Part shown: piece by piece, positions 13,047 to 38,324 of the stretch | Layout: the number at the start of each line of letters is the position of its first letter | Numbering within the stretch: the stretch's first letter is position 1 | From: Candidatus Binatia bacterium | GTDB taxonomy: Bacteria; Desulfobacterota; Binatia; UBA9968 | Assembly: GCA_036506735.1 (NCBI GenBank) | Contig: DASXRG010000038.1 | Span: 6,856-70,855, forward strand | Direction: 5' to 3' | DNA: 64,000 nucleotides | Position numbers and translations under genes: made by a program | Notes under the pieces: model-generated | What the model saw: only the letters and a program-made list of their open reading frames with translations | What the model was told of the DNA's origin: nothing | Database searches by the model: none

Positions 13047-13498
13047 TTGCGCGCCTCGCAAAATCCAGGCAGGGCTTTTCCCTCATTGAACTCATGATGG
13101 TCCTTGTGCTTGTCGGGTTGGCGAGTCTGATAACCATTCCGGCCATTGATCGTGGAATCAAAAAGCGCCAGGCCAGGCAGTCGATCCTGGCAATCGCGGC
13201 AGTGGCGCGCGACATGCGCCGGCGGGCCATTGACGAAGGGAAGCTCAAGGAACTTATCATCAGCCCCCGCGAGGACAGCTACTTCGCCTCGGGCACCGAC
13301 ATCTTCCACTTGCCCCAGACGGTCAAAGTCACCGGGATCGCGGGCGGCGAGCCGCTCGGCAATCAGATCACGCGATTTACCTTTTTCCCCAACGGAAGCA
13401 TCGTCGGCGGCGCCATCGAGCTTTCGGATCGCCAACAATATACGTACTTGATACGTCTCGAACCGCTCGTGGGACGCGTCGTGGTGACCCGACAATGA
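13043..13498 (+). CDS. gspH: Minor pseudopilin, GspH-like
   Basis: SRQGFSLIELMMVLVLVGL prepilin motif after a 10-aa leader; 151 aa; GTGA overlap with the gspG stop. Confidence 0.65.
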   Translation: MIARLAKSRQGFSLIELMMVLVLVGLASLITIPAIDRGIKKRQARQSILAIAAVARDMRRRAIDEGKLKELIISPREDSYFASGTDIFHLPQTVKVTGIAGGEPLGNQITRFTFFPNGSIVGGAIELSDRQQYTYLIRLEPLVGRVVVTRQ

Positions 13499-13989
13499 AA
13501 AACGAAAAGCGGAAAACGGAAAGCGGAAATAGGAAATCCGAAAATCCAAAACCTGTCCCTTCGATAAACTCAGGGCAAGCTCTGAGCCAAGCCGAAGGAT
13601 CTAAAATCGAAAGTGGTTTTACCCTTTTGGAAGTCGTCGTCGCCATGGCGATCGTCGGCTTGGGAGTGGTGACTTTGCTCGAAGTTTTTTCGTACGGCCT
13701 CAGGCTGGAAGCCTCCGGCGCGGCCCGGACCGATGCCGTCGTCTACAGCCGCCAGGTGATGGACGAGTTTCTGACCCGCAAGGATTTTGACGGTCGGGGA
13801 GATGCAGGCTCGTTCGGAAAGAACCACCGCTGGCGGGTGGATACCAGTCCCCTGCGCGACGACAGCGACCTCGCGCCGAAGGGCTGGGACGTAACCGAGA
13901 TCACGCTGCGCATGCGCTACCCCGACGGAGAGCGCGACAAACTGGTGGAGATGAAAACTCTCCGGGTGCAAAAAACGAAACGACAATGA
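13495..13989 (+). CDS. gspI: Minor pseudopilin, GspI-like, with 41-aa leader
   Basis: ESGFTLLEVVVAMAIVGLGVV prepilin motif. The only in-frame start is the ATG at 13495 (ATGA overlap with gspH), giving an unusually long leader. Confidence 0.65.
   Translation: MKNEKRKTESGNRKSENPKPVPSINSGQALSQAEGSKIESGFTLLEVVVAMAIVGLGVVTLLEVFSYGLRLEASGAARTDAVVYSRQVMDEFLTRKDFDGRGDAGSFGKNHRWRVDTSPLRDDSDLAPKGWDVTEITLRMRYPDGERDKLVEMKTLRVQKTKRQ
13498..13552. repeat. Tandem degenerate heptamer tract (GGAAARC type) inside the gspI leader codons
   Basis: GAAAAGC GGAAAAC GGAAAGC GGAAATA GGAAATC CGAAAAT CCAAAAC. The same repeat type recurs at 22562-22593. Confidence 0.7.
13540..13605 (+). repeat. 66-nt block duplicated in gspI and gspJ leaders, copy 1
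   Basis: 61/66 identity to 14028-14093. Encodes ENPKPVPSINSGQALSQAEGSK. Contains the hairpin CCTTCG..CTCAG-GGCAAGCT-CTGAG..CGAAGG. Confidence 0.85.
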
Positions 13990-14705
13990 AAAGCGAAAAT
14001 GCTCGGCAGCCGCGGGCGCCCAAAATCGAAAATCCAAAACCTGTCCCTTCAATAAACTCAGGGCAGGCTCTGAGCCAGGCCGAGGGATCCAAATTGGAAT
14101 GCGGCTTCACGTTGATCGAGGTCACGGTCGCGATCACCTTACTGGCGTTGATTATTGCGACGCTTTACGGCTCCTTTCATTTAAGTGAAAAAGCCATGGT
14201 GAAGGCGCAAGCGCGCGCCGAGGAGAGCCAGGGGCTCAGGACGTTTCACAGTTTCCTCGGCGAGTATATCCACTCCGCTTATCCGTATCGGGCGTCGGCG
14301 CGGGATGCCGCCGTATACTTCATCGGCGACGACCGGGGCGTCGAATTCGTCTCCTCGCTCTCAACCGGCCTCGGCGGCCGCGGCATGTCCAAGGTGCGGA
14401 TCTCCGCCGAGCTCGTGGGCAATCGCGGCGCGACGTTGACGTTGGAGGAAGAAATGCCCGTGCGCGTGAGCGACAAGGACAGCGGCAGCGGCGGCTACCG
14501 GAACAGCGTCGTGCTCGCCGAGGGCCTCAAAGGATTGCGCCTAGAATATCTCGATTCCCAATCTCAGGACGAGAACTGGGTCGATGAATGGGACGGCCGG
14601 CAGCGCCGGTCGCTGCCGCGGGCCGTGCGCCTGATCCATCGGGGCGAGCGAGGCGCGGAAATCCGCTGGGTGTTTCCCATTATGATGAGAGTCTTAACAC
14701 CGTGA
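13986..14705 (+). CDS. gspJ: Minor pseudopilin, GspJ-like, with 40-aa leader
   Basis: ECGFTLIEVTVAITLLALII prepilin motif; 239 aa; ATGA overlap with gspI. Confidence 0.6.
   Translation: MKSENARQPRAPKIENPKPVPSINSGQALSQAEGSKLECGFTLIEVTVAITLLALIIATLYGSFHLSEKAMVKAQARAEESQGLRTFHSFLGEYIHSAYPYRASARDAAVYFIGDDRGVEFVSSLSTGLGGRGMSKVRISAELVGNRGATLTLEEEMPVRVSDKDSGSGGYRNSVVLAEGLKGLRLEYLDSQSQDENWVDEWDGRQRRSLPRAVRLIHRGERGAEIRWVFPIMMRVLTP
14028..14093 (+). repeat. 66-nt block duplicated in gspI and gspJ leaders, copy 2
   Basis: See 13540-13605. The five differences (tcg/tca, caa/cag, caa/cag, gaa/gag, tct/tcc) are all third-codon-position and synonymous. Confidence 0.85.
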
Positions 14706-27301: not shown

Positions 27302-28348
27302 ATGCCTTCCACCAGGGGTAAGAAATCTCTCTCTCCCACGCAGCTGAGAAAGAAGGAGCATCTCGAGCTCTGTCTCGACACCCCGGCGGTCGCCGGCACG
27401 GCGGGCACGGGTTTGGACCGCTACGCGTTCGTCCATAACGCGCTGCCCGAAATCGACATCGACGAGATCGATCTCACGACGACCTTCCTCGGCAGGCGGC
27501 TCAGGGCGCCGCTCGTGATCTCGTCGATGACCGGCGGCTTTGACCTGGCGCGCAAGGTCAATCGCAACTTGGCGGCCGCGGCACAGCAGCTCGGACTCGC
27601 GATGGGCGTCGGGTCGCAGCGCGTGGCGCTCGAAGAGCCGGGCGCCGCCGATTCCTTCAAGGTGAGAGATCTGGCGCCGGATGTCCTTCTGCTGGGAAAT
27701 CTGGGCGCGGTTCAGCTCAACTACGGCTATGGCGTCGAGCAATGCCGCAAGGCGGTCGCAATGATCGGCGCGGACGGATTGATTCTCCATCTGAACGTGT
27801 TGCAGGAGGCGGTTCAGCCCGAGGGTAACCGGAATTTCAAGGGGCTCGCGCGGCGCATCGCCGAGGTCTGCCGCGCGCTCGACGTGCCGGTGGTCGCCAA
27901 GGAGGTCGGCTTCGGCATCTCGGCGGACGCCGCCTTGCGCTTAAAGCAGGCCGGCGTCGCCGCCATCGACGTGGCCGGTCGCGGCGGGACCTCATGGTAC
28001 GCGGTGGAGGCGAAGCGCGCGGCACGGAAGGGAGCGGCCGTCGAGGGCGCCTTCGTGGACTGGGGCATACCGACCGAGGAGGCTTTGATCGCGGTGCGGA
28101 GCGCGCTGCCGGATATCGAGCTCATCGCCTCCGGCGGCATCCGCAACGGCCTGGACGTGGCCAAGAGCATCGCGCTCGGCGCCAACGTCGCCGCCATCGG
28201 CCAGCCGCTGCTTGCGCCGGCTTTGGAATCGGCCGACAAGGTGATAAAATCACTCGGCAAAGTGATTCACGAGATCAAAGTAGCGATGTTGTGCGTCGGC
28301 GCGGGCGATCTCGCGGCGCTGAGGACGGCGGCGCTCGTCAGGAGATAG
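27302..28348 (+). CDS. fni: Type 2 (FMN-dependent) isopentenyl-diphosphate delta-isomerase
   Basis: KKEHLELCL, RLRAPLVISSMTGG, VVAKEVGFGIS, IASGGIRNGLDVAKSIALGA: TIM-barrel IDI-2 signature. Confidence 0.85.
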   Translation: MPSTRGKKSLSPTQLRKKEHLELCLDTPAVAGTAGTGLDRYAFVHNALPEIDIDEIDLTTTFLGRRLRAPLVISSMTGGFDLARKVNRNLAAAAQQLGLAMGVGSQRVALEEPGAADSFKVRDLAPDVLLLGNLGAVQLNYGYGVEQCRKAVAMIGADGLILHLNVLQEAVQPEGNRNFKGLARRIAEVCRALDVPVVAKEVGFGISADAALRLKQAGVAAIDVAGRGGTSWYAVEAKRAARKGAAVEGAFVDWGIPTEEALIAVRSALPDIELIASGGIRNGLDVAKSIALGANVAAIGQPLLAPALESADKVIKSLGKVIHEIKVAMLCVGAGDLAALRTAALVRR

Positions 28349-28361
28349 TGCTGAGGGCTGA

Positions 28362-28389
28362 GTAGGGGCGGTTCGCGAACCGCCCCTAC
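28362..28389. terminator. Perfect 28-nt palindrome after fni
   Basis: GTAGGGGCGGTTCG|CGAACCGCCCCTAC, preceded by GTGCTGAGGGCTGAG heptamers; 14 nt after the fni stop. No U-tract. Confidence 0.55.
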
Positions 28390-31402: not shown

Positions 31403-31479
31403 GGAGTGAGAAGTGAGCCGTGAGCAGATAAAGAAGGGGAATGGGTGGACTGCTCACTACTCACTGCTCACGGCTCACT
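31398..31479. repeat. Heptamer-periodic inverted repeat (GTGAGNN family)
   Basis: AGTGAGG AGTGAGA AGTGAGC CGTGAGCAG ... CTGCTCAC TACTCAC TGCTCAC GGCTCACT. Overlaps the ATPase stop codon. Confidence 0.85.
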
Positions 31480-31485
31480 AAAAAA

Positions 31486-32700
<1,215 letters not shown>

Positions 32701-32708
32701 CGCGCCGG

Positions 32709-33686
32709 CTACTTGAACACGCCTTCTTTTTCCAATTCGCGGAGCGCGCGGAGATCGACGAAGTCTTCGAACTTCGCGGTCTTGGCTTTGGGCTCTTTCT
32801 CGGACAGTTCTTCCAACACGGTTTGAATGCCCGCGACCGTGGGGAACGGCCGCACGTCGAGGACCTTGGCGCTCCGCGTCGCCGCGTATTCCAGAGTCTC
32901 AGGGTCGTTGGTTTTGAGCGCCGCCTGAATTGCGGCTTTGGCGGCGTTGCGGTCGGTCTTCAGCAATCGAATGCCTTCGGAGACGCTCTTGACGAATGCC
33001 TTGACCAGCTTGAAATTGCGCTCGATGACCGGCCCCATCATGTGAAAGGTGAGGAAGGGATACTCGAGGTTCGTATCGGCGAGATCGGCCAGAATGTTGA
33101 ACCCTTGTTTCTTGGCGAGCGGAACGAAGTCGGCCGCCATGATCGTTCCATCGACGCTCCCCGCCATGATCGCGGCCATGCGCGACGAAGAATTTCCGAT
33201 CTGCAGCACGGTCACGTCTTTTTTCGGATCCAGCCCGGCCTCCTTGACCAAGAGATCGGTCATGAAGTGGGACCCCGAGCCGAAGCGGCTCACGGCGACC
33301 TTCTTTCCCTTGAGCTGCTTCAACGCAGTGATCGATGGGTGGCTCAAAAAAACGTGGTTGAAGTGGTTGGCGACCGCCGCGACGATGCGCATATCGGCGC
33401 CGCGGAGCTTCGCCTGCACCGATTCCGAGCCCTGGGAAAAAGCGATGTCGAAGCTGCCTCCGATCAGCCCTTGCCCCAAAAGCGAGCCGCTGCCGACGTA
33501 GACGATGACCGGGTCCAGACCATTTTTCCGAAAGATGCCCTGCCGCTTGGCGATTTCCAGCGTGTACTGGCTGATGCCGGTCCCGCTGTAGCCGACGTTG
33601 AGCTTCTGGAGGTCCTGAGCTTCGGCCGGATGCAACGACACGAACCCGAGCGCCGCCGACAACATCAGAATTCTGATCCGGTTCAT
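32709..33686 (-). CDS. NMT1/THI5-like (SsuA/TauA-type) periplasmic substrate-binding protein
   Basis: Signal peptide MNRIRILMLSAALGFVSLHPAEA; LKGKKVAVSRFGSGSHF pattern. Confidence 0.7.
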   Translation of the reverse strand: MNRIRILMLSAALGFVSLHPAEAQDLQKLNVGYSGTGISQYTLEIAKRQGIFRKNGLDPVIVYVGSGSLLGQGLIGGSFDIAFSQGSESVQAKLRGADMRIVAAVANHFNHVFLSHPSITALKQLKGKKVAVSRFGSGSHFMTDLLVKEAGLDPKKDVTVLQIGNSSSRMAAIMAGSVDGTIMAADFVPLAKKQGFNILADLADTNLEYPFLTFHMMGPVIERNFKLVKAFVKSVSEGIRLLKTDRNAAKAAIQAALKTNDPETLEYAATRSAKVLDVRPFPTVAGIQTVLEELSEKEPKAKTAKFEDFVDLRALRELEKEGVFK

Positions 33687-33766
33687 GACCCCTCCTGAAG
33701 AGCGCGCGTTTGAATCGAACCGGAGCTTAGCAGATGGCGGCGGCTTGTCAATTGTGAAACTCTTCG

Positions 33767-33870
33767 TTAAACCAGCTCGAAATCGATTTCGCTCCGAAAC
33801 GCGTTGATGCGCGCGACTTTGACGCGCACGGCGTCGCCCAAGCGGAATTTTCGCCCGTGGCGCAGGCCTT
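33767..33870 (-). pseudogene. Displaced original 3' end of rnr (34 codons + TAA)
   Basis: Reverse translation ends ...VRVKVARINAFRSEIDFELV*, a near copy of the rnr C-terminus at 35897-36000 (...VRVRVARINAFRSEIDFELG*). Confidence 0.8.
33821..33870. repeat. 50-bp perfect direct repeat, left copy (att-like)
   Basis: GACGCGCACGGCGTCGCCCAAGCGGAATTTTCGCCCGTGGCGCAGGCCTT, identical to 35951-36000, offset exactly 2130 bp. Confidence 0.95.
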
Positions 33871-34088
33871 AGCTCAATAATTTTTGACGTGCATTTCGGG
33901 TATTTCTTCGGTAAAATTTCACTTCTACACAGCTATCACATTGTACCCGATGTCTTTTGAAAGAAAAAAAGTTCATGGGAGTCATGTGACTTAAGTTCAC
34001 GAGGCATAAATCTTACTAAATCTATTGCGGTGAACGAGATCAGAACATGAACACTCAACCTTGAGTCGAGTCCAACCGATAGGAAGAG

Positions 34089-35087
34089 TTGATGACTAAA
34101 GTCTCAAGCTTCACGGTGGGCGAGATCTACACGAATGACCAGATTCGTTTCTCGCTTGACGTCGAGAATCTTGGAGGCATTCGACCAGCGCTCGGCCCTG
34201 ATCGGAACGTAAGACACGTCGCTGTACTGACGGCTGCCGAAGATTCTGGAAGACTAAGATCGGAGAACCCGTATTATGATCGCATCGAGGGCGATGTTCT
34301 GACCTATACCGCGCAAGGTCGTGAAGGCGATCAAGAACTTACGGGACGGAACAAGCGGCTCATCGAGCAATACACAGTTCCGACGCCATTGTTTGGTTTC
34401 GTCAATCTTGGGAGACAGACGTATCGATTCCTCGGCCTACTGGAACTACTTCGCCATTACCAAGAGAGGCAAGCAGACAAGAGGGGGAACATCCGCAGAG
34501 TCTGGTCGTTTGATTTTCGTATTTATGGCTCTCCACGTGTGGTTCCCATCAGTGAAGCGAAGACCCTGACTGCTGCGCTGCTCGCACAATCTCGTCAGAA
34601 CAATCCGCTTGTAACTTTGGACCGAGAAGTTGCTAGTACCCCTGTGGTCGATTTGCCTTCGGGCATCAGATCGGCAGGAGAGATTGAGAGTGTTCGGATG
34701 AGACTTTTCCAAATTGCGCCGCTTGAATTCGAGCACTTTGTCAAGCTGGTCATGGAGAGGAGTGGTTTTGTAGAGGTTGCAGTTACCAGGGCCAGTGGTG
34801 ATGGCGGAATAGACGTGAACGCTTATGTGGAAAATGGAAATGACTTCTTTGCGGGTACCCACGTCCAAGCTCAAGTAAAGCGGTGGCGTCATGCAGTGGG
34901 CAGTCCAGACATAAACAGCTTTAGGGGGGCATTGAGCACGACCGCTAAGGGAGTGTTCGTGACTACTAACGCTTTCACAAGAGCCGCCGTGACTGAGGCA
35001 AGCCATGCGAACAAGCCATCGATCAGTCTGATTGACGGACCACGGCTCTCTGCCATTTTGTTGCGCCTGAACTTGGCCCCACAGTGA
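34089..35087 (+). CDS. Putative modification-dependent (type IV) restriction endonuclease: SRA/YDG-like N-domain + Mrr-type PD-(D/E)xK C-domain
   Basis: C-terminus: FEHFVKLVMERSGF...ASGDGGIDVNAY...AQVKRW...VFVTTNAFT is the Mrr_cat pattern. N-terminus: VGEIY...GGIRPA...YDRIEGDVLTYTAQGREGDQELTGRNKRL...PLFGFV...YRFLGLLEL parallels SRA-domain motifs. TTG at 34089 or ATG at 34092. Confidence 0.6.
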   Translation: MMTKVSSFTVGEIYTNDQIRFSLDVENLGGIRPALGPDRNVRHVAVLTAAEDSGRLRSENPYYDRIEGDVLTYTAQGREGDQELTGRNKRLIEQYTVPTPLFGFVNLGRQTYRFLGLLELLRHYQERQADKRGNIRRVWSFDFRIYGSPRVVPISEAKTLTAALLAQSRQNNPLVTLDREVASTPVVDLPSGIRSAGEIESVRMRLFQIAPLEFEHFVKLVMERSGFVEVAVTRASGDGGIDVNAYVENGNDFFAGTHVQAQVKRWRHAVGSPDINSFRGALSTTAKGVFVTTNAFTRAAVTEASHANKPSISLIDGPRLSAILLRLNLAPQ

Positions 35088-35108
35088 AAAAACCTAGGAG
35101 GATAACCT

Positions 35109-35417
35109 ATGCTTGCTTTAGCCATCCCTATGGATACCGACTCCCGAGGAAATACGATTGTTGAGACGAATGCGGGGAATGAATTAAAGGCACGGCGATG
35201 GCCACAAGATTGCGAGTTTCAATTAGTGGCCTTCGGCCCAGCCAGCACCACTTGCCAAATAGTGTGGCCCGCGCAACTTGCTGAAGACATTGCCACGGCG
35301 TTACAACAGGTGGATCGCCTAGGCAATTCCCGGGGAGTAAAGCCTGACTGGTACCGAAGACTTCATCACTATTCTAAGGGAATCGAACTGCGGCGGCGTC
35401 AACGTTCGCAGCGTTAG
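35109..35417 (+). CDS. Hypothetical protein (102 aa), islet-borne
   Basis: Strong Shine-Dalgarno (CTAGGAGGATAACCT-ATG), 21 nt after the nuclease stop. No recognisable motif. Confidence 0.5.
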   Translation: MLALAIPMDTDSRGNTIVETNAGNELKARRWPQDCEFQLVAFGPASTTCQIVWPAQLAEDIATALQQVDRLGNSRGVKPDWYRRLHHYSKGIELRRRQRSQR

Positions 35418-35514
35418 TGCAGAAAGATGATCGTAAAATCTCATTGCTCGGCCAAATGTTGGTGGATATTCATCTTGACTTTCGGATGGTGTTGAGGCAG
35501 GAAAGTGAGGCGGT

Positions 35515-35862
35515 ATGGCGAAAAGAAATTCCAGACGGCAGTCTCCGAACATTGGTCAGCGGTTCACTTCTCTGGAAAGGCTTGTTCGGACCGGGTTTCG
35601 CCAGACAAATGCCGGATTTCGAAGCTTTCAGAAACATACGGATACAAAGTTTAGAGCTGTCCATTTTGATCTTCGGAATCTCCGCAGAGAAATGAATGGG
35701 CGGTTCGCCACGGTCGACGACCGGATCGATCGGCTGGCAAGCCACGTTGATGGCTTCATGAAACTGCACGAGACCATGGACATCGAGATGAGAGTCATGA
35801 AAGAGCAAATGAACCGTTTTGAACAAAGGCTGAAGCGTTTAGAAGCGGCGCAGGCGAGTTAG
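35515..35862 (+). CDS. Hypothetical coiled-coil protein (115 aa), islet-borne
   Basis: GAGG 5 nt upstream of the ATG; heptad-like C-terminal half (DDRIDRLASHVDGFMKLHETMDIEMRVMKEQMNRFEQRLKRLEAAQ). Preferred over the overlapping 35417-35695 ORF. Confidence 0.45.
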   Translation: MAKRNSRRQSPNIGQRFTSLERLVRTGFRQTNAGFRSFQKHTDTKFRAVHFDLRNLRREMNGRFATVDDRIDRLASHVDGFMKLHETMDIEMRVMKEQMNRFEQRLKRLEAAQAS

Positions 35863-35896
35863 CCTAGTCCGAGTGCGAACCTTTCTCTAATTCCGT

Positions 35897-38086
35897 CTAC
35901 CCCAGTTCAAAATCTATCTCGCTCCGGAACGCGTTGATGCGCGCCACGCGGACGCGCACGGCGTCGCCCAAGCGGAATTTTCGCCCGTGGCGCAGGCCTT
36001 TGATGAGATATTCTTTCTCGTAATACTGGTACACGTCGTCTGTGAGAGACGATAGCTTCACGAGCCCTTCGATGAAGTAATTCTCCAGCTCGACAAAAAA
36101 TCCAAAGTTCGTAAGGCTCACGATGAAGCCGTTAAATTCCTGGCCGATCTTGTCCATCATGAACTGCGCCTTCTTGAGATCGACCATCTCACGCTCCGCG
36201 TCCATGGCGATTCTCTCGCGCTCGGAGGTGTGCTTGCCGGCCTCCTCGAGATAGCGGTCGAGCTCTTCCTTTTCCTTGGCTTTCAGTTTTTTCCCGCGCA
36301 ACACTTCCTCCAACGCGCGATGAACGGTCAGATCGGGATAGCGCCTTATCGGGGAGGTGAAATGGGTATAGCAGGTCGAGGCGAGGCCGAAGTGGCCAAT
36401 GTTCTCCGGCGCGTAGTGCGCCTGCTTCATCGCGCGGAGCACGACCCGATTGACGACTCTTTCCTCCGGTTTGCCGCGACAGGCCGCGAGCAGTTTTTGC
36501 AGCTCCTTCGGAGTCATCCGTTCTCGCTTGAGCGGCAGCCGATATCCCAGACTTAAAAGAAACGGCGCGATTTCCTCGAGCGCTTCGTGCTCCGGCCCCT
36601 CGTGCACCCGGTACAGCAGCGGAAAATCTTTTTCTTTCAAGTGGCGCGCGACCGCCTCGTTGGCGGCGATCATAAACTCTTCGATGATCCGGTGCGCGAT
36701 GTTGCGCTCGGCGCGCACGATGTTCTCGGGCTTTCCCTGGAGGTCCAGAATGATTTCCGCTTCGGGCAGATCGAAATCCAAACTGCCGCGCGCCTTGCGC
36801 TGCTCCCAGAGGAGCAAGGCCAGCTCCTCCATCAGCTTGAAACCGTCCACCCGATCGCGGTAGCGCTCCAGACACTCGGGGTCTCGGTCGACGAGGATGC
36901 GGCGCACGTACGTGTAAGTCATGCGCGCGTGGCTGCAAATGACGGAATTGAAAAAACGGCTCTTGATCACTTCGCCGCGGTGGTTGATCTCGATCAGCGC
37001 GGTTTTCGTCAGCCGGTCCTGTTTCGGATTGAGACTACAGATTCCGTTCGAAAGCTCTTCGGGCAGCATGGGCAGCGCGCGGTCGGGAAAATAGACGCTG
37101 GTCGCCCGCTCGTAAGCGTCTTGATCGAGCGCCGCGCCCGGCTTCACGTAGTAAGCGACGTCGGCGATCGAAACGTAAAGGTGGTAGACGCCGTCTTTCT
37201 TTTCGACGATGACGGCGTCGTCGAAGTCGCGCGCCGTTTCGCCGTCGATCGTGACGATCGGACGGGAGCGCAGATCGACGCGCGAGGCGATCTCCTTGGG
37301 ATCGATCGCCTGGGGAATTTCGGTGGCTTCGCGCCGCGCCTCCGGTGAAAAAACGGCCGGCAGATTGTATCTAAAAACAAGCGCCCGGGCCTGAATGTCG
37401 GGGTCTTCGGAATTGCCCAGTGTTTCGACAAGATCGGCCTCGGTGGAAGAATAGCCGGTGCCGTAGCGGGAGATCTCGGCGGCGATCACGGCGCCTTTTT
37501 CCGGCCGGGGACCGCCGGCCGCAAGCGGGATGGCCGGGGCGACGCGCAAGTCCATCGGAATGAGATAGCCTTTGCCGTCGTGCTCCTCGTACGTGCCAAT
37601 GAGCCGCTTCTGGCCGCGCTCTAAAATCTGCACGACGTGGGTCTCGTCGCCGCCTCTTTTGCGGTCGACGCGGACCATGACGCGGTCGCCGTGCATGAGC
37701 CGGCGCATCTCGCGCCGGCTCAAATAGAGATCGTCCTTGCCGCGCTCGTCGAGGATCAGAAAGCCGTAGCCGTCCGGATGGGCGTGGACTCTGCCGGTCG
37801 CGCAGTTTTGCCCGTCCGGCAGCGCGTAATGGTTTTTTTTCAGCCGGACGATTTTTCCCTCTTTGGCGAGCGCTCGGAGACTGCCGACGATTTCGTTCAA
37901 GTCGTCGCGGGCGGCGCCGATTCCCTTGAGGATCTCCGCCGGCGTCAGGCGCCGCCGCGGCCGGGAAGAGAAAAGGGAAAGAACTTTCCGTTCGATGTTT
38001 GGATCGGCTGCCATCGATTTCAGTATGACGGATAAAACACGGGGGATGAAGGGATCGGCGCGCTCATTCTTCGTCCGCGAGCTCAC
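35897..38086 (-). CDS. rnr: Ribonuclease R
   Basis: HTH/CSD N-terminal region, RNB catalytic domain (TIDGETARDFDDAV, SIADVAYYV, YFPDRALPMLP, HFGLASTCYTHFTSPIRRYPDL) and C-terminal S1 domain. An alternative start at 38014 (MAADPN) would remove the overlap with the upstream gene. Confidence 0.9.
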   Translation of the reverse strand: MSSRTKNERADPFIPRVLSVILKSMAADPNIERKVLSLFSSRPRRRLTPAEILKGIGAARDDLNEIVGSLRALAKEGKIVRLKKNHYALPDGQNCATGRVHAHPDGYGFLILDERGKDDLYLSRREMRRLMHGDRVMVRVDRKRGGDETHVVQILERGQKRLIGTYEEHDGKGYLIPMDLRVAPAIPLAAGGPRPEKGAVIAAEISRYGTGYSSTEADLVETLGNSEDPDIQARALVFRYNLPAVFSPEARREATEIPQAIDPKEIASRVDLRSRPIVTIDGETARDFDDAVIVEKKDGVYHLYVSIADVAYYVKPGAALDQDAYERATSVYFPDRALPMLPEELSNGICSLNPKQDRLTKTALIEINHRGEVIKSRFFNSVICSHARMTYTYVRRILVDRDPECLERYRDRVDGFKLMEELALLLWEQRKARGSLDFDLPEAEIILDLQGKPENIVRAERNIAHRIIEEFMIAANEAVARHLKEKDFPLLYRVHEGPEHEALEEIAPFLLSLGYRLPLKRERMTPKELQKLLAACRGKPEERVVNRVVLRAMKQAHYAPENIGHFGLASTCYTHFTSPIRRYPDLTVHRALEEVLRGKKLKAKEKEELDRYLEEAGKHTSERERIAMDAEREMVDLKKAQFMMDKIGQEFNGFIVSLTNFGFFVELENYFIEGLVKLSSLTDDVYQYYEKEYLIKGLRHGRKFRLGDAVRVRVARINAFRSEIDFELG
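35951..36000. repeat. 50-bp perfect direct repeat, right copy (inside rnr)
   Basis: Identical to 33821-33870. Confidence 0.95.
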
Positions 38087-38324
38087 GCATCAGCCAGTCG
38101 TCGCCGACATCGGCCGGCCGCGGGATCTCGGTCAGCTGAATTTCATGCCGGAGCGAGGCCATGAGAGAGCGGCCGACGGCGAGGAAATCCTCGACGATCA
38201 GCACGACGATGACGGCTTTCTTGCGGTCGATGGTGCGAATGATGCCGATGCCTTCGTAAGATTCGATGATGAATTTGACGTAGGCGATGTCTTCGGTGCG
38301 GAGCTCGAAATAGATTTCGTGCAT
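38064..38324 (-). CDS. DUF4911-like small protein
   Basis: MHEIYFELRTEDIAYVKFIIESYEGIGIIRTID... matches the pattern I recall for DUF4911. ATG at 38324; the longer ORF-track start lies in the hairpin. Confidence 0.5.
   Translation of the reverse strand: MHEIYFELRTEDIAYVKFIIESYEGIGIIRTIDRKKAVIVVLIVEDFLAVGRSLMASLRHEIQLTEIPRPADVGDDWLMRELADEE

Follow-up and report, generated by a model that had tools for sequence, protein, structure and literature searches.

How does a small piece of foreign DNA come to rest at the 3' end of a housekeeping gene, with that gene left intact and no recombinase at hand? The question is raised by rnr, the gene for RNase R, in a Candidatus Binatia bacterium (assembly GCA_036506735.1), where a 2.13-kb islet lies between two copies of the end of the gene. 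We analyzed a stretch of 64,000 nucleotides around it (contig DASXRG010000038.1, positions 6,856 to 70,855), here called the window; coordinates given alone refer to this stretch, and numbers of the form L001 denote the loci compared with it. Binatia, as yet uncultured, abound in soil and sediment, and we know of almost nothing on their mobile elements. The islet emerges here as apparently acquired DNA that gave rnr a new end and probably displaced the native one, and displaced ends of this kind recur in related genomes. As the cause we favor, with a probability of about 0.5, homology-driven (Campbell-type) recombination between rnr tails and not a dedicated integrase.

A new end for rnr

The islet is bracketed by a perfect 50-nt direct repeat (33821-33870 and 35951-36000, spacing 2,130 bp), with exact identity breaking off at both edges; about 1e-21 50-mer repeats would be expected by chance in 64 kb. 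Homology extends into the adjacent 50 nt (33771-33820 against 35901-35950) with 10 mismatches. The features of the region, including its open reading frames (ORFs) and GC (guanine plus cytosine) content where it stands out, are the following:

31441-32700, plus strand: macB-type ABC permease gene, the conserved far border of the rnr-macB hot spot, facing rnr in relatives with an empty site
32709-33686, minus strand: gene for an NMT1/THI5-type substrate-binding protein, flanking the islet; presumed earlier downstream neighbor of rnr in this lineage
33767-33820, minus strand: displaced, probably native, rnr 3' end (...KVARINAFRSEIDFELV, TAA)
33821-33870, minus strand: left copy of the 50-nt repeat, the 5' part of the displaced rnr tail
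33871-34091, plus strand: non-coding leader of the islet, 221 nt, AT-rich (GC 0.39), upstream of the Mrr gene
34092-35087, plus strand: cargo gene with SRA and Mrr domains, predicted MspJI-like modification-dependent restriction endonuclease (Pfam Mrr_cat, 2.5e-23)
35109-35417, plus strand: ORF2, an open reading frame of 102 aa without a family, conserved beside the Mrr gene
35515-35862, plus strand: ORF3, a 115-aa basic coiled-coil protein of no known family, convergent with rnr
35897-35950, minus strand: surrogate rnr 3' end (...RVARINAFRSEIDFELG, TAG), followed beyond the stop codon by DNA that accompanies ORF3 in L070 and L077
35951-36000, minus strand: right copy of the 50-nt repeat, within functional rnr (codons GLRHGRKFRLGDAVRV)
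35897-38086, minus strand: rnr (RNase R; Pfam RNB 2.6e-108, OB_RNB, CSD2 and S1), intact, with the surrogate tail as its end

The reading frame contiguous with rnr ends ...VRVRVARINAFRSEIDFELG, and that of the displaced copy, also on the minus strand, ends ...VRVKVARINAFRSEIDFELV with its own TAA at 33767-33769. Over the last 54 nt, stop codon included, the two tails differ at 12 positions in nine codons (78% identity). Seven of these nine codons are silent when TAG/TAA is counted; the other two change the residue, CGC/AAA from R to K and GGG/GTT from G to V. A preliminary description of the locus had reported the identical 50-mers 2,130 bp apart, a further 50 bp of homology with 10 mostly synonymous mismatches and the TAA of the displaced copy, and our exact comparison agrees with it on each of these. 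For rnr itself, the start called by the Joint Genome Institute (JGI) at 38014 gives 705 aa, with an exact 705-aa match named ribonuclease R from Candidatus Binatia.

All 17 codons of the displaced tail agree with the family consensus, and its frame is intact. This agreement, together with the predominance of silent differences, suggests that both tails diverged as parts of working genes and that the displacement is recent. On one side, the displaced tail borders on the start region of the NMT1-type gene, which begins 80 nt farther downstream; on the other, rnr homology breaks off abruptly at 33870/33871, beyond which weak similarity persists for about 15 nt. The contiguous tail (TAG ACGGAATTAGAGAAA... 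from its stop codon onward) runs into DNA that accompanies ORF3 not only in the window but also in L070 and L077. These observations support an insertion that brought a surrogate gene end: the contiguous tail would be the foreign end and the displaced tail the resident one, probably the native end of rnr, with the NMT1-type gene as the presumed original downstream neighbor in the lineage of the window.

The allele of the 50-nt block (CTG..GGG CGA) is found in both copies of the window and in no other tail. At the identity of the adjacent 54 nt, 50 consecutive matches would arise with a probability of about 3e-6, which rules out simple divergence as the source of the 50-mer and identifies the block as an exchange or conversion tract.

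Composition sets the enclosed DNA apart. The islet interior (2,080 nt) has a GC content of 0.503, against a mean of 0.6085 (standard deviation 0.021, minimum 0.561) in other windows of 2,080 nt (z = -5.0), and its tetranucleotide distance (z = +8.0) lies above that of all 289 other windows. GC at third codon positions is 0.51-0.57 in the three interior ORFs versus 0.77-0.81 in rnr, the NMT1-type gene and macB. The AT-richness noted at first sight thus makes the islet the most deviant stretch of the window by both measures, and on these grounds the 2.13-kb segment is evidently horizontally acquired foreign DNA.

The structure is reproduced in three assemblies from samples other than that of the window. 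L001 (JGI 3300036863) matches 32700-38100 at 99.98% over 5.4 kb with both repeat copies present, L002 (JGI 3300036864) crosses the left junction, and L003 (a Logan contig) terminates 30 nt into the left core, the kind of break that a true repeat would cause.

Displaced tails at other rnr loci

We compared 55 rnr loci from species-representative genomes, 23 metagenome contigs obtained with a degenerate rnr-tail pattern, and the contexts of cargo homologues. Among the 47 non-redundant loci whose sequence extends 1 kb or more downstream of rnr, a tail profile search found extra, 5'-truncated rnr tails downstream of the gene in nine, and short contigs add further displaced tails (L065, L077, L084 and L095). 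The displaced tails measure about 45-160 nt, the inserts between tails 0.35-3.5 kb, and arrays are up to three tails deep (L071 and L079). Representative arrangements, read outward from rnr, are these:

L016: rnr, a 0.75-kb insert (ribbon-helix-helix antitoxin and PemK/MazF toxin), a 116-nt rnr tail, ORF2, Mrr
L079: rnr, a DUF433 and DUF5615 pair, tail, a PIN gene, tail, macB
L071 and L085: rnr, a small antitoxin-like gene, tail, glucose/sorbosone dehydrogenase and cytochrome c, tail, ORF2, Mrr
L077: rnr, ORF3, tail
L095: ORF3, tail, a PemK pair, with the rnr side beyond the contig end
L021, L027, L030 and L082: older, decayed tails

L016 offers the clearest polarity. Its displaced tail and the DNA downstream align colinearly with the native rnr end of L015 and are almost identical to it; the match runs base for base just past the stop codon and on through ORF2 and Mrr. 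The displaced copy is therefore clearly the original one at this locus, and the insert supplied the new end.

The cargo of the arrays varies, and the pair of glucose/sorbosone dehydrogenase and cytochrome c recurs in L071, L021, L065 and L082. So do the details of the repeats. Upstream repeat boundaries lie at -24, -27, -33, -34, -51, -83 and about -95 from a fixed anchor and belong to different events, some having been moved by later deletions (L077 versus L095, L071 versus L065). The perfectly identical block spans -33 to +17 in the window, -4 to +43 in L016, -27 to +57 in L079 and -75 to -16 in L069. Tails with internal deletions occur in L071 and L077, tails within arrays can be mosaic, and an identical cassette junction is present twice in L084. 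At the cassette ends, no 8-mer is common to three or more cassettes, and no shared terminal motif was found. Taken across the loci compared, tail displacement is apparently a lineage-wide pattern of Binatia that stacks tiny defense and toxin-antitoxin cassettes, with the window as one instance.

The border gene on the other side can be affected as well. L071 holds two copies of a 98-nt macB tail with its own stop codon (L071:1666-1763 and L071:3741-3838, 95.9% identical), which bracket a 1.98-kb insert of AbiEi and AbiEii (GC 0.526). This is the only displaced macB tail among 27 macB-bearing loci. In L061, a 127-nt direct repeat (L061:8744-8870 and L061:9456-9582, 96.9% identical) lies just downstream of rnr. 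A 183-aa gene, SET-domain-like on visual inspection, has the second copy as its 3' end, and the repeat may be another displaced gene tail in the hot spot. Direct repeats of about 100 nt also surround a ParE toxin pair in L009 (L009:11504-11601 and L009:12361-12464, 76% identical), here in a different genomic context with a 79%-identical Mrr homologue.

The interval between rnr and macB

The preliminary description had proposed to look for the empty site in relatives, and it was found at the level of related species. The rnr and macB genes face each other at a distance of 12-110 nt in L013, L017, L018, L032 and L054, which we read as the ancestral state. The RNase R protein of the window forms a singleton cluster, so that these empty alleles come from related species only. 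Elsewhere, the interval contains SRA-Mrr, MazEF, PIN, AbiE, SNF2, Uma2, a methylase fragment, metabolic genes, an NMT1-type gene, or nothing. By its gene content, it is evidently a defense-rich variable hot spot between convergent core genes.

Nucleotide identity of the Mrr gene between the window and L007, L010, L015, L016 and L071 is 83-87%, compared with 76-81% for rnr and 76-85% for macB of the same five genomes, which points to movement of the cassette between lineages. L007 has the gene order of the window (rnr-ORF3-ORF2-Mrr-NMT1-macB) with a truncated Mrr gene and without the displaced tail or the 221-nt leader; the islet is 87% identical between the two (ORF2 94%) and the flanks 81-84%. 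The closest rnr relative found is L070:1-1043 (90.7% amino-acid identity over the C-terminal 161 residues), which reads rnr-ORF3-ORF2 and carries an AbiEi-like fragment in place of the Mrr gene, of which the last 37 nt are left. The profile search detected no tail relic in L007, L004/L010, L070 or L092.

Erosion reaches macB in L016, where 86 aa are left in frame, the N-terminus joined directly to the C-terminus (L016:17498-17758), beside a block of AbiEi, AbiEii and nucleotidyltransferase-like genes; the hot spot thus appears to erode its own border gene too. Six contigs with Binatia-type rnr-macB synteny (L010, L011, L017, L022, L028 and L036) bear record titles of Syntrophobacteraceae, Verrucomicrobiia, Terrimicrobium, Udaeobacter or Acidiferrales, which suggests mis-binning or outdated taxonomy.

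Searches for recombinases and vectors

Recombinases were searched for within 10 kb on either side of rnr at the 47 non-redundant loci and the short contigs (about 60 loci) and in the one 64-kb window. Pfam found none among the three islet ORFs, the cassette genes of relatives or ten suspicious neighbors, the latter being SNF2, Uma2, a methylase fragment, AbiEi and similar, and the precomputed JGI Pfam annotation has none in 18.8 kb around the islet. Our Pfam summary for 100 rare downstream ORFs covers the best 25 of 126 families. Across the loci and the window, a scan for tyrosine and serine recombinase motifs returned only two Firmicute loci, and phmmer with lambda Int, phiC31 Int and two Firmicute integrases returned nothing in the Binatia loci, at a low sensitivity, as the Firmicute integrases were themselves missed by the lambda Int query. 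Pfam, motif scan and phmmer thus bear out the earlier remark that the islet itself carries no recombinase.

One of the Firmicute hits is a phage-type tyrosine integrase about 1.4 kb downstream of rnr in Sporosarcina (L049:13487-14659), which demonstrates that the motif scan detects integrases. Presumably it belongs to an element at the adjacent ssrA (the Firmicute order being rnr-smpB-ssrA); it is unrelated to the Binatia pattern.

The degenerate rnr-tail pattern had 0 matches in viral contigs, and tblastn of the cargo protein against plasmids and phages gave partial matches below 40% identity only, with no vector identified. In our literature searches, no paper connected rnr to genomic-island integration, nor did any treat the mobile elements of Binatia in substance.

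How the islet may have entered

In the explanation we favor, the islet would have entered by a Campbell-type event, a single crossover with circular DNA within the last approximately 100 nt of rnr, or an equivalent exchange with a sister chromosome. The incoming DNA would have brought its own rnr tail, which now completes the gene, while the resident tail would have been shifted 2.13 kb downstream beside its old neighbor, the joining being by general homologous recombination between rnr tails. The perfect 50-mer would represent a heteroduplex or gene-conversion tract, delimited on one side by the point where homology stops: a Holliday junction that migrated to the homology edge could leave an identical tract in both copies after segregation or repair. 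Once bracketed by tails, a cassette could loop out as a circle, re-enter at any rnr tail, be amplified by unequal exchange and stack, which would explain the arrays in relatives, and toxin-antitoxin and defense cargo would persist because it is addictive or selected. We infer the circular intermediate, the dependence on RecA and the direction of transfer.

Several observations constrain the event. The displaced tail begins 50 nt upstream of the point at which the contiguous tail becomes foreign, which requires a single crossover; with this offset, a linear double crossover on one chromosome cannot yield the structure. Sliding identity along rnr reveals no breakpoint, so that the foreign DNA must begin within or just after the last approximately 50 nt. 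The same absence of an rnr breakpoint led us to reject, for the window, import of a longer donor segment, with a one-sided homologous crossover upstream of the tail and an illegitimate end join. We also rejected target-site duplication by a transposase, given a surrogate tail that keeps the register of rnr.

The preliminary description had taken the repeats as the signature of site-specific integration into the 3' end of rnr. Its foreign insert with a surrogate end holds, but the 50-mer is probably not an integrase signature, given the failure to find an integrase within 10 kb of rnr, the boundaries and identical blocks that vary between events, the absence of an end motif and the macB tail that is displaced alike. 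Variable boundaries and blocks, mosaic tails and cassettes without a shared end motif argue against crossover at a fixed point. The choice it offered, of a decayed island or a cargo element mobilized in trans, was too narrow, as recombination between tails fits the data at least as well.

A number of points weigh against homology-driven recombination. Displaced tails are all short (about 45-160 nt), where random capture should leave long fragments too, unless these are rapidly lost. Several independent junctions fall within about 10 nt of one another (AAAGG/CCGCCGCCACGG), a hint of a preferred site, and rnr tails are displaced at no fewer than nine of 47 loci, compared with one of 27 for macB tails. 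RecA-type exchange is inefficient on 50-100 nt of DNA that is 80-90% identical. The recombinase search took in one 64-kb window and, at each rnr, 10 kb in either direction, with methods of limited sensitivity. Finally, the homology model leaves the origin of the first tail-tagged cassette without explanation.

Other explanations

One broader proposal shares much with homology-driven recombination, and we put it forward tentatively. The last approximately 100 nt of rnr, and occasionally of macB, might serve Binatia as a portable recombination handle for tail-tagged defense and toxin-antitoxin mini-cassettes. Such a handle could conceivably permit insertion, excision, amplification and stacking without a cassette recombinase, much as in an integron, on the tail of a housekeeping gene. 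Its driver might be host homologous recombination alone, or perhaps an unrecognized recombinase acting in trans.

We consider it unlikely that the islet is a minimal, att-flanked cargo element in the manner of a cis-mobilizable element (CIME), served in trans by an integrase that is encoded elsewhere and recognizes the last approximately 100 nt of rnr. Small circular cassettes with attP and a surrogate rnr tail would, on this rather doubtful scheme, build the arrays by successive insertions. The topology of attL, cargo and attR with a restored gene end is classical, and the many independent events at one target of about 100 nt with unrelated cargo, several junctions no more than about 10 nt apart, the much more frequent displacement of rnr than of macB tails and the uniformly short tails would all follow from such an enzyme. 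The identical blocks of the window and L016 moreover overlap on GGCGAC.CCGT.CGCGTC, which holds a short inverted repeat, and accretion of elements that lack an integrase is known for CIMEs (PMC5704250) and tycheposon islands (10.1101/2020.12.28.424599). However, no integrase or integrase fragment was found at or near any of the approximately 60 loci, boundaries and identical blocks differ by event, cassette ends have no common sequence, and the macB-tail case would call for a second specificity. Viral contigs do not match the tail pattern either. The block upstream of the divergent 3' end is, in addition, the same lineage-specific allele in both copies, which crossover at a fixed point by a mobile attP does not predict.

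That a larger, integrase-bearing element entered rnr and was reduced by deletions to attL, a defense gene and attR is improbable. This account shares the att-like topology with its restored gene end, toxin-antitoxin and restriction genes are typical of island ends, and decay is visible in relatives, namely, in the truncated Mrr gene of L007, the 37-nt remnant in L070, the internal deletions in the tails of L071 and L077 and the macB remnant of L016. The same full loss, yet with both repeats retained, would have been needed in more than 12 arrays with inserts down to 0.35-0.9 kb, and no intermediate with an integrase remnant was seen among them; the displaced tail of the window is itself undecayed, which implies a recent event and little time for reduction.

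Still more improbable is an old vertical arrangement, in which ORF3-ORF2-Mrr would be ancestral to the subclade of the window, L007 and L070, the tail an old relic and the 50-mer a recent gene conversion. The order in L007 matches that of the window, L070 agrees as far as rnr-ORF3-ORF2, and the sequence past the stop codon of the contiguous tail is common to the window, L070 and L077 with a divergence similar to that of rnr. Against this, the sensitive profile search detected no tail relic in L007, which also lacks the 221-nt leader beside the displaced tail; the islet is closer to L007 than the flanks are; and the displaced tail, with 17 of 17 codons at the family consensus, shows no neutral decay.

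Chimeric joining of strains at shared rnr sequence can practically be dismissed: the window does derive from a metagenome-assembled genome, and an assembler may be led astray by repeats, but its junctions recur in the three further assemblies from different samples, the join at 33870|33871 connects unique non-rnr DNA to mid-tail, which k-mer sharing cannot produce, and analogous structures occur in many unrelated assemblies, with L030 (older, decayed) from a different assembly project.

Genes of the islet

The islet was at first described as carrying a restriction-type nuclease and two unknown genes, and the Pfam match to Mrr_cat, together with the lack of any Pfam match above threshold or PADLOC match for ORF2 and ORF3, is in line with this. 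The 331-aa cargo protein has an N-terminal SRA-like domain and a C-terminal Mrr_cat nuclease of the PD-(D/E)XK type, and an identical record is named "restriction endonuclease [Candidatus Binatia bacterium]." Its precomputed annotation gives a weak match to PF26348 (SRA_ScoMcrA), PADLOC assigns it to PDC-S02 / mREase_IV, and a profile search of PDB matched MspJI (4f0p). The AlphaFold (AF2) model is of moderate confidence (predicted local distance difference test, pLDDT, of 65.5), and Foldseek with this model retrieved MspJI (1e-13), the SRA domain of plant SUVH5 (1.6e-7) and that of ScoMcrA (8.5e-7). Residues D237/D241...Q259, V262 and K263 of Mrr_cat are invariant in 24 homologues, and Q261 is nearly so. 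More than 880 homologues were found; among the matches listed, most are 65-79% identical to the query, and the few that are named belong to Acidobacteriota and Binatia. The cargo is thus a predicted stand-alone restriction enzyme acting on modified DNA, from sequence and structural model. We know of no study of this SRA-Mrr enzyme family.

ORF2 comes after the Mrr gene in L007, L010, L015, L016 and L071; L070 has it too, with no more of Mrr than the 37-nt remnant. ORF3 is, by the neighborhoods of its homologues, the usual convergent neighbor of rnr in the subclade of the window and not a recombinase. It is the sole gene between two rnr tails in L077, and L095 shows it ahead of a displaced tail, on a contig that ends before the rnr side is reached. 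The approximately 200 ORF3 homologues, nearly all on very short contigs, measure 104, 111, 118, 125, 132, 139, 146, 153 and 162 aa, mostly in steps of seven residues, which suggests that the coiled coil grows and shrinks by heptads. The left edge of the 221-nt leader is the junction with the displaced tail, and this leader is missing from L007. A promoter scan found no sigma-70 consensus promoter in the islet. Since ORF2-Mrr directly follows a tail in L010, L015, L016 and L071 and ORF3 forms a separate unit in L077, the islet of the window looks composite.

Further repeats in the window

Two other repeat structures were observed at a distance from rnr. A 72-nt direct repeat (13534-13605 and 14023-14093, 91.7% identical) encodes the leader ENPKPVPSINSGQALSQAEGSK in adjacent pseudopilin-like genes (13495-13989 and 13986-14705), just ahead of the GFTL(L/I)E prepilin motif, and looks like a repeat element captured in two neighboring gene starts. 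At 28362-28389, just past an ORF ending at 28348, lies a perfect palindrome of 28 nt (GTAGGGGCGGTTCGCGAACCGCCCCTAC); the hairpin is GC-rich and lacks a T-run.

Implications

The locus illustrates what may be one route by which defense and toxin-antitoxin genes spread and stack in Binatia without recognizable integrases, transposases, plasmids or phages, and displaced tails are present at about one-fifth of rnr loci. Should homology drive the process, short gene ends displaced in this way would provide a simple and searchable marker of recent gene gain in metagenomes, and they would caution against taking every att-like repeat for integrase activity. If instead a trans-acting recombinase is at work, rnr would qualify as a landing pad of a new kind, one whose cargo units are unusually small.

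Comparison with known systems

CIMEs are defined by attL and attR that are kept and integration and transfer genes that are lost, and they accrete beside a cognate integrative and conjugative element (ICE) or integrative and mobilizable element (IME) (PMC5704250). The islet resembles CIMEs and tandem accretions such as those related to ICESt1 and ICESt3 in its intact target gene, its attL/attR-like repeats without integration or transfer genes, and the tandem stacking. CIMEs, however, descend from an ICE or IME and are moved by one whose integrase acts at the same site, and no such cognate element was found within 10 kb of rnr at the approximately 60 loci; the units here are also far smaller (0.35-3.5 kb, often one gene pair), and repeat boundaries vary by event. 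Viewed as a genomic island or IME, the islet has direct repeats derived from its target and an unoccupied site in relatives, but it encodes no recombinase.

Tycheposon islands at the tRNA genes of Prochlorococcus grow by successive insertions that push older elements inward and scatter partial target copies (10.1101/2020.12.28.424599). The rnr arrays show a similar pile-up of partial target copies with plug-in cargo cassettes. Tycheposons have tyrosine recombinases, replication modules and tRNA targets, whereas neither type of gene was found here and the target is protein coding.

Integron arrays and clusters of attC sites lacking integron integrases (CALINs) also consist of very small cassettes, often toxin-antitoxin, with repeats of about 60-140 nt and sometimes no integrase. 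The rnr repeat is a coding gene end rather than an attC hairpin, the R''/L''-L'/R' boxes of attC (RYYYAAC...GTTRRRY) were not seen by eye, cassette genes lie on either strand, and there is no IntI or attI. An integron attC was rejected as an identity for the repeat, which is colinear with rnr coding sequence, the cassettes being of mixed orientation.

The cargo has its own counterpart in the MspJI family, whose members likewise join an SRA-like base-flipping reader to a following PD-(D/E)XK nuclease and stand alone, without a methyltransferase. Identity between the cargo and MspJI is only about 18-20%, and the cargo gene is followed by the conserved 102-aa ORF.

Finally, orphan rhs-CT and cdiA-CT regions are 5'-truncated fragments of the 3' region that lie behind the full gene, have the look of displaced ends, remain homologous to the main gene and recombine with it by homologous recombination (PMC3967940). 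The rnr arrays share this layout of a main gene followed by truncated fragments of its own 3' end, with no dedicated recombinase apparent. For rhs and cdiA, it is the variable toxin tip that is displaced, together with its immunity gene, and the function of the protein changes as a result. The rnr tail, in contrast, is the conserved end of the S1 domain and would act as a homology handle only, with unrelated genes carried between the tails as cargo.

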